Assembly: GCA_019058275.1 (NCBI GenBank)
Contig: JAHLVW010000066.1
Span: forward strand, 64,001 to 128,000
From: Candidatus Heimdallarchaeota archaeon
GTDB taxonomy: Archaea; Asgardarchaeota; Heimdallarchaeia; JABLTI01
Length of the DNA stretch: 64,000 bases
Direction of reading: 5' to 3'
A program made the position numbers and the translations under genes. A model generated the notes under the pieces. That model was not told the DNA's origin, did no database searches, and worked only from the letters and a program-made list of their open reading frames with translations. Positions 51,843 through 60,116 of this stretch are shown here, piece by piece (position 1 is the stretch's first letter; every line of letters starts with the position of its first letter).

Positions 51843-51919
51843 GCCGTTGTAGCACAGCCTGGTAGTGCGACTCCTTGGTAAGGAGTAGGTCCCGAGTTCA
51901 AGTCCCGGCAACGGCTCCA
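51843..51919 (+). tRNA. tRNA-Thr(GGT); CCA encoded
   Basis: GCCGTTG/CAACGGC acceptor stem; ACTCC-TTGGTAA-GGAGT anticodon arm; GTTCAAGTC T-loop. Confidence 0.93.
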
Positions 51920-52401: not shown

Positions 52402-53358
52402 ATGGTTCATAACGTGAATGGTGTTACTAAACTTCTAAATACTAAAGAAGTTTATTTGGAGCATACACCCAAAAACAAGTATAGTGAAATGGTTAAATTA
52501 ATGGAAGATAAAACCATATATGAGCTTTTACAAATTGCTACTAAAGATAAGAATCATTATCACCGTATTTTCGCTGTACATTTACTAGGAAAAAAGAGCG
52601 AGAAAAGAGATGAAATAGTTAACGTTTTACGAGAAGTTGTAACTTATGAGCACTATTCCGTTAGAAACGAAGCAATTTGGGCTTTGGCTAGATTAGGTGA
52701 TTTGAATATACAAGTATCACTTATTGAGATATATGCTACAAATAAGACGAATTTAGAAAAGACACTTACGGTAAAATTATTGGGTAAAATCGGAGACGAA
52801 AACTCAATTCCATTTCTTCTTAATGTCTGTGTAAATTCTGATAGCATTACTAGTTTAAGTGCCGGATCATCAATTCACGAAATATTAGATCGAATTGGTG
52901 TTAAACCACTTTTAAGAGAATTGCATAATGAAGATCTAAAAATAAGACAAGAAGTTGTATGGATTCTAAGTGCTCGCTGTAAATTTCTATATCGCTCAAA
53001 TGAGAAGAAAATCATCATTGAAGCTCTTAAAAATAAACTAGCTCAAGATCCTTCCATTCTTGTTCGTTTAGCAACAGCTTACAATCTGTCTGCACTAAAC
53101 ATTTCTGAAGGATCAAAAGAATTACTTATCTTGTGTATCTCAGGAAAGATTAAACGAGAAAGGCAAGCTTTCTTCCTAAACGAAGTTATTAGAGCATTTG
53201 TCTACAGACAGAAAGAATCATCATTAAAGCTTGTGAACAAGTTACACTTAGCAATTGAAAATTCTGAGGATTTTAGAAAAGATACTAAAACAACTAGAAT
53301 CATTTCAAAAATCGAGAAATCTATAAAGAATTTTGATAAAATTTTTGATATTATGTAA
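52402..53358 (+). CDS. HEAT-repeat protein
   Basis: VRNEAIWALARLG, LLGKIGDENSIPFLL, IRQEVVWIL repeats. Confidence 0.75.
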   Translation: MVHNVNGVTKLLNTKEVYLEHTPKNKYSEMVKLMEDKTIYELLQIATKDKNHYHRIFAVHLLGKKSEKRDEIVNVLREVVTYEHYSVRNEAIWALARLGDLNIQVSLIEIYATNKTNLEKTLTVKLLGKIGDENSIPFLLNVCVNSDSITSLSAGSSIHEILDRIGVKPLLRELHNEDLKIRQEVVWILSARCKFLYRSNEKKIIIEALKNKLAQDPSILVRLATAYNLSALNISEGSKELLILCISGKIKRERQAFFLNEVIRAFVYRQKESSLKLVNKLHLAIENSEDFRKDTKTTRIISKIEKSIKNFDKIFDIM

Positions 53359-53399: not shown

Positions 53400-53490
53400 T
53401 AATTAACACAATCATGTTAATTAACAATTTTAATTACTAGCTAATTTGACCTTGAATTAACACATCTATGTTATATTTACCTATTTATAA
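53400..53490 (+). promoter_or_regulatory. Twin TAACA-N6-TGTTA operators plus TATA box upstream of the candidate ncRNA
   Basis: TAATTAACA-caatca-TGTTAATTA 53400-53423; AATTAACA-catcta-TGTTA 53455-53473; TTTATAA 53484-53490. Confidence 0.55.
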
Positions 53491-53511
53491 GAAGATGCTG
53501 ATATATTTATT

Positions 53512-53664
53512 GGCGATTAGGAAGCTAATGTATCGACAAGAAATCAACAAGGGTCTTGTATGTTGGTTTTTCTGGTGGTGCATTAGAAATAGACGAAAAG
53601 AAAATAGTCAAGATTCCTTTACCCAAAGGAGCTTGATGACATTCGGAAACGTCGACTAATCGCC
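53512..53664 (+). ncRNA. Unclassified structured ncRNA (~153 nt, three-way junction)
   Basis: 9-bp terminal stem GGCGATTAG/CTAATCGCC; two arms with five G-U pairs that fit only the + strand; TATA 28 bp upstream; T-tract downstream. Confidence 0.65.
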
Positions 53665-53690
53665 CCTTTTTGGTTATGGGATAATTTCAC

Positions 53691-54566
53691 TCAAATTGTA
53701 TCTGATCCAAATTCCTTGATTTTTTCTATGACTCTGATAGCTTCTAATGTTTCTCTTACATCATGAGTTCTAATCAAGCTTGCACCATGTAGAACAGCAA
53801 TACTAGTTGCTCCGAGAGAACCGTAAAGCCTATCTTTTGGGTCCTTGATGTCTAATATCTTCCCAATAAATGATTTTCTTGATAATCCAATGCAAATTGG
53901 TTGATTGAATTTCTTACCTATATCCTGCAGATGTTTCAAAATATGAGCATCAATCTTATACCACTTAAAATCTTCAATTCTATGAAAGCCAATATCTGGA
54001 TCAACAATTATCTTATCGAGCCCAATACCTGCGTCTTGAGCGATTTTTAGAGAATGATCTAGTGCTGAAATAACTCTCTCTGTTGGATTTCCTTTGAATC
54101 TGTTTAGCTTAGTGGCTCCAATGATAATTGGTACATCAAAATCTGCTGCTACTTTCGCTAAGCTAGGATCATCATTTAGTCCACTAATATCGTTAATCAT
54201 TTTAGCACCATTTTTTAAAGCTGCTTTAGCAACTATAGCTCTGGTAGTATCAATTGAGATTGGTTTTTTTATTTCATCAAGAATGATTTTTAATCCCTTT
54301 ACCACTCTATCACTTTCCTCTTTAGGAGAAATCTCAGTCTCGAGATAAGGAGCTGTACTTTTTGCACCAATATCAATTATATCTGCGCCCTCTTTTATTT
54401 GTCTGATAGCAGTTTGCAAAATACTTCCAGGACAAGTTTTAATTGAATCCTTGTAGAACGATTCTGGACTAAGGTTGATTACTCCTTGGATCTTTACAGA
54501 TTCATTTATTCCTATCTTCAATTCATCTAATTTAACAATACTCAATTGAAAAGCTCCTATCTTCAT
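53691..54566 (-). CDS. folP: Dihydropteroate synthase
   Basis: GVINLSPESF, IDIGAKST, SIDT, INDISG, DPDIGF, GLSRKSF, RTHDV. Confidence 0.92.
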   Translation of the reverse strand: MKIGAFQLSIVKLDELKIGINESVKIQGVINLSPESFYKDSIKTCPGSILQTAIRQIKEGADIIDIGAKSTAPYLETEISPKEESDRVVKGLKIILDEIKKPISIDTTRAIVAKAALKNGAKMINDISGLNDDPSLAKVAADFDVPIIIGATKLNRFKGNPTERVISALDHSLKIAQDAGIGLDKIIVDPDIGFHRIEDFKWYKIDAHILKHLQDIGKKFNQPICIGLSRKSFIGKILDIKDPKDRLYGSLGATSIAVLHGASLIRTHDVRETLEAIRVIEKIKEFGSDTI

Positions 54567-58190: not shown

Positions 58191-58279
58191 GCCGAGGTAG
58201 CCAAGCCCGGACCACGGCGCTGGTCTTGAAAACCAGTTCTCGTAAGGGAGCGCGAGTTCGAATCTCGTCCTCGGCACCA
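58191..58279 (+). tRNA. tRNA-Ser(TGA) with long variable arm; CCA encoded
   Basis: GCCGAGG/CCTCGGC acceptor stem; CTGGT-CTTGAAA-ACCAG anticodon arm; GTTCGAATC T-loop. Confidence 0.92.
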
Positions 58280-59777: not shown

Positions 59778-59942
59778 TACTGGCATACAGAGGCTGAAAA
59801 ACATGATGGATTAGATGTTCTTTTTTCAGAATTAGAAGAAGAGATCTAGTTTTTTGTCTAAAAGTTAGATTTTTTAGCTTTTTTCAGATTTATGTCTATT
59901 TTTATATTAATTATTGTACATAGTATATCTTGAACCTATATC

Positions 59943-60058
59943 TCGGCCAAATTTAGGGTTCCTAGCTGCGTCCGTGTTGGGAAACCTTCTATCATCAATT
60001 CAACACCCTCCTAAATAGAAGGAATTTAACTCTTCCCTTTTTAGCCAGCACGGACCGA
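59943..60058. ncRNA. Candidate structured RNA / cis-element upstream of archease
   Basis: GC-rich island; helices 59970-59980/60045-60055 and 59985-59992/60015-60022; alternative pairing 59951-59957/60010-60016. Confidence 0.45.
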
Positions 60059-60116
60059 CTAGTAATTAGTAGTATGTTATTGATATTCTTATACTGAAAA
60101 ACTTTAGAAAGGATAA

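Follow-up and report, generated by a model that had tools for sequence, protein, structure and literature searches.

What is encoded in the gap between two convergent genes, one for a HEAT-repeat protein (52402-53358, +) and the other a Pterin_bind/folP gene (53691-54566, −), on contig JAHLVW010000066.1 of a Candidatus Heimdallarchaeota archaeon? An initial annotation of the 64-kb stretch of DNA analysed here (hereafter the window) had proposed that this gap holds a stand-alone gene for a structured RNA, equipped with its own promoter, operators and terminator. To our knowledge, Asgard archaea have so far yielded very few structured non-coding RNAs (ncRNAs) other than the universal ones. Our comparison of the locus with its relatives supports the presence, on the + strand, of a gene for a conserved RNA with a defined secondary structure and several paralogs per genome, and we have little doubt that it represents a real and new ncRNA gene family. 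All coordinates are positions in the window unless a contig is named, and G000 denotes the genome to which the window belongs.

The proposed stems, TATA box, palindromes and T5 tract were all recovered by reading of the sequence and by RNAfold (Table 1). Positions 53505-53675 of the + strand folded with a minimum free energy (MFE) of −55.2 kcal/mol, compared to −35.6 ± 3.9 kcal/mol for 200 dinucleotide shuffles (z = −5.0; none of the 200 was as good), whereas the − strand reached only −39.6 kcal/mol. The resulting structure, a three-way junction with two arms, matches the pairing proposed earlier almost pair for pair. The assignment to the + strand, which had been based on G-U pairs, was borne out, as invariant G-U pairs specify it and the − strand folds far less well. 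The GC content rises from ~15-22% upstream, where the promoter lies, to 35-39% in the RNA itself.

BLASTN detected exactly one copy in G000 and one ortholog with 73-96% identity in each of the ten other genomes of the genus; the gene is thus found throughout the 11 genomes of the genus, and it also occurs in the sister genus. RNAalifold predicted the same three-way junction for an alignment of ten orthologs, with both-sided changes in 18 of the 50 pairs. The orthologs were used to build a covariance model (R1; a later model is termed R2), which revealed a second and sometimes a third, diverged copy in nearly all genomes of the family-level clade, the sister genus included. The copies fall into group A, which includes the window copy (143-186 bits), group B (75-101 bits; in G000 at C55:15314-15478 on the − strand) and group C (64-72 bits). 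Among 24 distinct sequences, 90.3% of the alignment cells pair, a share that drops to 37-49% once the 3′ partners are shifted by one to three columns, and double compensatory changes across the paralogs were found in 36 of the 50 pairs. None of 500 shuffles reached the observed values, and the covariation numbers stayed the same when the alignment was enlarged by 20 metagenome sequences. This strong covariation supports the proposal of a stand-alone structured RNA gene.

The individual helices differ in their conservation. The terminal stem P1 (helix 1) is 98-99.5% paired with both-sided changes in four of its nine pairs, and its opening five pairs (GGCGA/UCGCC) hardly vary within the family. 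Helices 2 and 3, which form arm 1, show compensatory changes in 17-18 of 20 pairs. In arm 2 (helices 4-7), the short helix P3b is supported by the replacement of GAA/UUC in group A with AAG/CUU in group B. Besides the GGCGA/UCGCC pairs of P1, the sequence is kept in all paralog groups at the junction, whose strands read (R)AAAG and AGGAAAAAGAC, in the GAC/GUC pairs at the base of arm 2 and in two internal loops of this arm, among them the 4x4 loop AAUA/GAC(R). These two conserved purine-rich loops are the likeliest surfaces for contacts with a protein or another RNA. Readings of the conserved loops as K-turn, hammerhead core or T-loop were tried by hand and rejected, as they did not fit the respective consensus.

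Beyond the secondary structure, sequence comparison supports a tertiary contact between the two apical loops, a feature that had not been part of the earlier reading. The loops carry a complementary pair of segments that varies between paralogs and lineages yet stays complementary: GGGU/ACCC in the window copy, and GGGUAU/GUACCC, AGGGUU/AACCCU, CUGGGUU/AACCCGG, GGAUUGG/UCAAUCC, GGAUUGAG/CUCAAUCU, AGGGU/GCCCU and GAGAGA/UCUCUC elsewhere. Cognate pairs reached a mean duplex energy of −7.81 kcal/mol, compared to −5.37 ± 0.44 kcal/mol for letter-shuffled loops (0 of 500 as good) and −5.36 kcal/mol for loops paired across paralogs. Furthermore, the arms are matched in length in all paralogs (59-66 and 61-66 nucleotides (nt)), and the distance from the junction to the complementary segment is ~25-28 nt for either arm in groups A and B. 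From equal arm length and loop complementarity together, we conclude that the RNA likely adopts a tuning-fork shape, in which two parallel arms are closed by an intramolecular kissing loop.

The family was detected in a narrow phyletic range. With R1, all 12 genomes of the family-level clade but none of 71 other genomes of the class contained a match (83 searched), and R2 gave the same contrast with 12 of 12 clade genomes and 0 of 29 others (41 searched). Relaxing the filters of R2 for five genomes from other families yielded matches below 20 bits only; these were discarded as spurious since they had neither the GGCGA/UCGCC closing helix nor a T-run or promoter. In the same five genomes the promoter palindrome described below was not enriched, and nothing RNA-like followed it. 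A 25-base structural pattern searched against 185,579 species genomes matched metagenome-assembled genomes (MAGs) titled Candidatus Heimdallarchaeota, one 'Bathyarchaeia' MAG, which carries both paralogs and which we judge to be mislabelled, and one Firmicutes genome, where the match is due to chance. Further family members were found on ~20 metagenome contigs. The earlier proposal of a possibly new Asgard ncRNA class was too broad with regard to its host range, as the family was detected in one family-level clade of Heimdall-group archaea only.

Does the RNA belong to a known family, or could the region encode something else? A scan of the whole window with Rfam 15 at gathering thresholds returned two tRNAs elsewhere and nothing at the RNA gene, and scans of paralogs A, B and C at E ≤ 10 gave only unrelated matches of 10-19 bits. 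The literature search likewise yielded no description of this RNA. These results agree with the initial annotation, which had recognised no known family. RNase P RNA is encoded elsewhere in the genome (C22:3491-3829, 136 bits), as is a full-length signal recognition particle (SRP) RNA (C74:6866-7172), which scored 94.9 bits and thus just below the cut-off of 96.5 bits. Searches for C/D-box or H/ACA guide RNAs returned only chance snoRNA matches of 13-19 bits. A C/D-box reading was dropped, because groups B and C have AAGAC or GAGAC where group A has UGAUGA and a CUGA partner is lacking, and an H/ACA reading was dropped because the ACA is not conserved. No match to the Y_RNA or YrlA families of Rfam and no T-arm with a UUCRANY loop was found, the apical loops reading AAGGGUCUUGU and ACCC, and Ro60/TROVE (PF05731) had no match in G000, which is 92.8% complete.

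A divergent or expanded 5S rRNA of this genus deserved consideration, as only 3 of 61 class genomes, and none of the 11 of the genus, had an RF00001 match above the cut-off, and as the candidate combines a closing helix, two arms and one conserved copy with a 4x4 loop in arm 2 (AAUA/GACA) that reads AGUA/GACG in one ortholog and there resembles the loop E motif. Yet G000 contains a separate 5S-like gene (C89:~84530-84760; more closely 84545-84752) with the canonical GGAAGUUAAGCC of loop C and GGGAAC of loop E, and the relatives hold similar 5S genes below the threshold; the RNA of the window is therefore not the 5S rRNA. RF00001 also failed to match the candidate at E ≤ 10, the consensus of loop C (CCGAAC...GAAGUUAAGC) and of loop E (AGUA/GAA) is absent from its sequence, and two to three diverged paralogs with differing arms and a kissing loop are not found in 5S rRNA. 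Taken together, we consider a 5S identity highly improbable. Even less credit is due to the idea that the 63-amino-acid (aa) protein encoded by the overlapping open reading frame (ORF) is the actual product and the fold incidental. The frame does run from ATG to stop over 63 codons and spans the region, but only G000 and G004, a relative with 96% identity, keep it whole. Of the remaining nine orthologs, in which insertions or deletions of one and two nucleotides disrupt the frame, three have a version shortened to 47 aa with a different C-terminus and six have none. Such length changes are tolerated where the helices are preserved, substitutions are compensatory for pairing and not synonymous, and the translation has no Pfam match. 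This alternative, which the initial annotation had itself raised, thus fails.

The 5S-like gene on C89, the only one of its genome, looks circularly permuted. It is covered by two adjacent partial RF00001 matches of 18.3 and 13.9 bits (L028:~1525-1690), and its order is the 3′ half of loop C, the 3′ strand of helix II and the loop E arm, followed by a hairpin GCUGCGUCUCGACGCGGUCA and then the 5′ half. The new ends lie inside loop C and are closed by a stem of 10-11 bp (GAAACUCAUCG/CGAUGAGUUUC). The sub-threshold 5S matches of the relatives (L033-L040) all end in a similar GCUGCG...CGCGGCCA hairpin.

How would such an RNA be transcribed? All paralogs have a TTTATAA, TTTAAAA or TTTAAAT box at the same place, ~28 nt before GGCGA, and a run of four to six T residues directly after P1. 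The region thus shows in its sequence what is expected of an independently transcribed archaeal RNA gene, namely a TATA box ~25-30 nt upstream, an oligo-T tract at the 3′ end and conservation. RNA polymerase would start ~25 nt past the TATA box and end at the T-run, the T5 tract being the presumed archaeal oligo-T terminator, and the predicted transcript would extend from about 53510 to about 53671 (~155 nt).

Upstream of the TATA box lies the palindrome TTAACA-N6-TGTTAA. Its position relative to the model start is −105/−106 throughout groups A and B, and likewise for most members of group C. A second copy, 54 bp away from centre to centre in the window, is present at −52/−51 in all group A loci and degenerate in groups B, where it is partly kept, and C. 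Of 22 exact matches in the 12 clade genomes, 18 lie upstream of family RNAs, and a reversed-pattern control gave 0-5 matches per genome. In the window, the 20-nt motif reached at least 10 bits only at the two sites of this RNA gene. We consider it probable that the palindromes are operators, as putative sites for a dimeric transcription factor. The earlier claim of transcriptional regulation draws support from these putative operators, whose positions are kept over the three paralog groups and ~40 loci. Archaeal activators, for example TrmBL1 and Ptr2, usually bind upstream of the region formed by the B recognition element (BRE) and the TATA box. From the corresponding placement of the palindromes we infer activation by a dimeric regulator.

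To which other genes might this regulator bind? A position-weight scan of G000 ranked the two RNA promoters at the top (25.1 and 23.2 bits), followed by an ORF-free gap on C98 (18.5 bits) and paired sites of 18.4 and 13.9 bits in the divergent promoter of purA and rtcB (C48:10550-10905; L066/L067). Both sites of the latter are conserved across the genus, and one abuts the TATA box of each gene. The position beside the TATA box of rtcB, the sole rtcB gene of the genome, is similar to that of the proximal site of the RNA gene. The neighbouring gene we take to be purA from its N-terminal translation alone. Lower in the ranking, a 16.2-bit site was found 34 bp upstream of the start codon of guaA, the gene for guanosine monophosphate synthase (C44:18878-18897; L080:2479). 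The motif was not found in the window at 59932-60062, upstream of the gene for archease, a cofactor of RtcB. As the motif is common to the RNA genes, purA/rtcB and guaA, we infer that a common switch probably controls the RNAs, the tRNA/RNA ligase RtcB and the two purine-nucleotide enzymes. The sites at guaA and purA hint that the regulator may also control two branch-point enzymes of purine nucleotide synthesis.

Two further observations concern these loci. The rtcB leader is conserved over ~110 nt and contains a covarying stem (GUGAG/CUCAC, GCGAG/CUCGC, AUGAG/CUCAU), which encloses a nearly invariant UCUGAWACYGGUCUUWCC. A complementarity between this leader and the conserved AUUCGGAA of the RNA, noticed by eye, was dropped, as it does not covary. 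The palindrome on C98 (AATTAACAGCARAATGTTAATT; 97995-98012, L078:2495) is perfect and recurs in genome G006 (C99:37961-37978, L109). It is located in a gap of ~480 bp between convergent ORFs that have no Pfam match, and it is followed by a TATAAATA box. A z-score of −3.7 was obtained for the fold of the next 200 nt, which are not conserved between the two genomes. This locus may be another member of the regulon.

Taken together, the explanation that we consider likely is a gene of its own for a ~155-nt structured RNA that is stable, acts in trans and belongs to a new family with two to three paralogs per genome. P1 would open into an A-rich three-way junction, from which two arms of ~60 nt extend side by side, and the pairing of their GGGU and ACCC loops would close the fork. 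A dimeric DNA-binding protein would recognise the palindromes at about −100 and −45, upstream of BRE and TATA box. It may be speculated that the RNA serves as a protein-binding scaffold or decoy in the style of Y RNA or 6S RNA, in a response linked to RNA repair or nucleotide status; the analogy is with the Y RNAs of the bacterial rsr-yrlBA-rtcBA operon. Whether its function is linked to RtcB at all is doubtful in our estimation. The more specific idea that these RNAs are the RNA part of an archaeal RNA-damage and repair response, counterparts of Y RNAs without Ro60 that are switched on with RtcB and act as scaffold or substrate mimic to recruit or gate RNA-processing enzymes, is slightly more doubtful still. 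Several points weigh against this explanation. Transcription, RNA ends and stability are all deduced from the sequence, and the link to the regulon consists of motif matches, of which the rtcB/purA site is conserved in the genus and the guaA site was read in the window's genome only. The genes for RNase P RNA, SRP RNA and the 5S-like RNA have no such palindrome in their promoters, so it is not a general signal of stable RNAs. Detection in one family could mean either a lineage-specific function or homologs that have diverged beyond reach. Finally, covariation cannot separate an intramolecular from an intermolecular kiss.

The last point opens the possibility that the loops pair between molecules, so that the RNAs form dimers or rings and each paralog has its own 'address'. 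Each paralog group does have its own self-complementary loop pair, and pairing across paralogs was no stronger than that of shuffled loops. On the other hand, drift by itself would also render intramolecular kisses specific to each paralog, and equal arms with a kiss at matching heights, as seen in groups A and B, are what a side-by-side intramolecular fold predicts; we regard contacts between molecules as improbable. The neighbourhood of the genes suggests another explanation, in which the element acts in cis or antisense on the convergent gene, as a bidirectional terminator, as an insulator or by read-through against its 3′ end. The 3′ end of the RNA and the stop codon of the convergent gene are 12-71 nt apart in 18 of 20 loci, and since the neighbour 3′ of the RNA is convergent in nearly all family loci, the initial annotation was right in stating that the element cannot be a 5′ leader. 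But the convergent genes are unrelated: folP in group A, a PolX-type polymerase in group B, where pyrF and a DUF202 gene lie upstream, and a glycosyltransferase in group C, whose members lie between two such genes. No protein neighbour is conserved across the paralog loci, and the group B copy of G000 precedes a co-directional gene. Moreover, a terminator needs neither 50 conserved pairs nor invariant internal loops, a covarying kiss and a promoter with two operators. The closeness to the stop codons could reflect simple sharing of a terminator, and a cis or antisense role is very improbable in our view; more generally, the RNA is probably not a base-pairing regulator or cis element.

A free-standing, trans-acting aptamer that binds a nucleotide-related ligand at the junction, by analogy with purine riboswitches, would account for the global architecture, for the conserved, A-rich junction strands, for the promoter motif shared with purA and guaA, and for folP and pyrF among the neighbours. 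It is at odds with the lack of an expression platform and of a downstream gene, with arms about three times longer than those of any purine aptamer, and with the distribution of conservation, which is strongest in the internal loops of arm 2 and not confined to the junction. Furthermore, no riboswitch family of Rfam matched at E ≤ 10. An aptamer of this kind consequently appears a rather slim prospect, and we favour an RNA under regulation that binds protein or serves as a scaffold, with a possible tie to RNA repair.

How does this RNA compare to known systems? The aptamer of purine riboswitches consists of P1 and two parallel arms that are joined by a kiss between L2 and L3. The RNA described here shares with it (RF00167) the closing helix, the three-way junction and the matched, side-by-side hairpins with paired apical loops. 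It differs in size (~155 nt with arms of ~25 layers, compared to ~70 nt and ~7 layers), in the conserved internal loops of one arm, in its archaeal host and in being a stand-alone gene with its own putative promoter and terminator, after which the next gene is mostly convergent; there is no similarity in sequence or by covariance model.

The bacterial Y RNAs YrlA and YrlB belong to the rsr-yrlBA-rtcBA RNA-repair operon (PMC4201824, PMC7790460) and are, like this RNA, small stand-alone ncRNAs with paired 5′ and 3′ ends and more than one copy per genome, in which a multi-branch domain is joined by loop-loop contacts. Their tie to RtcB is a common operon, whereas a common promoter motif would provide it here. 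In contrast to the Y RNAs, the RNA of the window has long arms and no T-loop/D-loop consensus, occurs in a genome in which Ro60/TROVE was not found, is not adjacent to rtcB and matches none of their Rfam families.

With 5S rRNA (RF00001), it has in common a three-way junction, a closing helix and an arm with a loop-E-like, purine-rich internal loop, and it differs from it by the kissing loop, by paralogs with differing arms and by the missing model match and loop C/E consensus. The Alu domain of SRP RNA also has two junction hairpins whose loops form tertiary G-C pairs (GG.../...CC), but the hairpins of this RNA are much longer and a UGUAAU-type turn is absent. Orphan ncRNAs such as raiA, OLE and ROOL were likewise found by conservation and covariation, have no assigned function and occur in one lineage; compared to these, the present RNA is smaller, is archaeal (Asgard), has an operator-bearing promoter and several paralogs per genome.

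None of the RNAs in Rfam 15 or in the searched literature resembles this RNA, which is a new family without a detectable relative. The fold reuses a known idea, a three-way junction closed by kissing loops, and is set apart by its size, its conserved internal loops, its stand-alone and putatively regulated gene and its Asgard host. The family thus adds a defined fold, a tertiary contact that can be tested and a promoter layout of its own, while its narrow detected range of one family-level clade limits its general reach. If the link to RtcB were true, RNA-repair modules centred on a structured ncRNA would have evolved separately in bacteria and in those archaea that are most closely related to eukaryotes, and if the RNA-repair reading were true, a regulated ncRNA/RtcB module would be described for the first time from that archaeal lineage.

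Table 1 Features of the RNA gene and its promoter in the window. Promoter elements were read from the sequence; helices follow the MFE structure and covariation.
Feature	Coordinates	Strand	Remarks
Distal palindrome TTAACACAATCATGTTAA	53403-53420		perfect TTAACA-N6-TGTTAA; centre ~100 bp upstream of the RNA start
Proximal palindrome TTAACACATCTATGTTAT	53457-53474		one mismatch; ends 9 bp before the TATA box
63-aa ORF	53468-53659	+	overlaps the RNA; judged not a gene
TATA box TTTATAA	53484-53490	+	28 nt 5′ of the first G (53512) of P1; read from the sequence
Structured RNA	53512-53664	+	from P1 5′ strand to P1 3′ strand; MFE and covariation
P1 terminal stem	53512-53520/53656-53664	+	5′ strand GGCGAUUAG
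Arm 1	53525-53586	+	P2a, 2x2 internal loop, P2b, apical loop
Arm 1 helices	53525-53534/53577-53586 and 53537-53549/53561-53574	+	
Arm 1 apical loop GGGU	53551-53554	+	5′ partner of the predicted kiss
Arm 2	53592-53653	+	P3a, A-rich internal loop, P3b, 4x4 loop, P3c, P3d, apical loop
Arm 2 P3a	53592-53595/53650-53653	+	
Arm 2 P3b	53600-53602/53642-53644	+	3 bp, GAA/UUC
Arm 2 4x4 loop	53603-53606/53638-53641	+	AAUA/GACA; conserved
Arm 2 P3c	53607-53612/53632-53637	+	
Arm 2 P3d	53614-53620/53625-53631	+	capped by the ACCC loop
Arm 2 apical loop ACCC	53621-53624	+	3′ partner of the predicted kiss; complementary to GGGU 53551-53554
T5 tract	53667-53671	+	directly after P1; 20 nt from the folP stop codon (opposite strand)

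The two tRNA genes that represent the only Rfam matches of the window at gathering thresholds are located at 51843-51916 (+) and 58191-58276 (+), the latter with a length of 86 nt.

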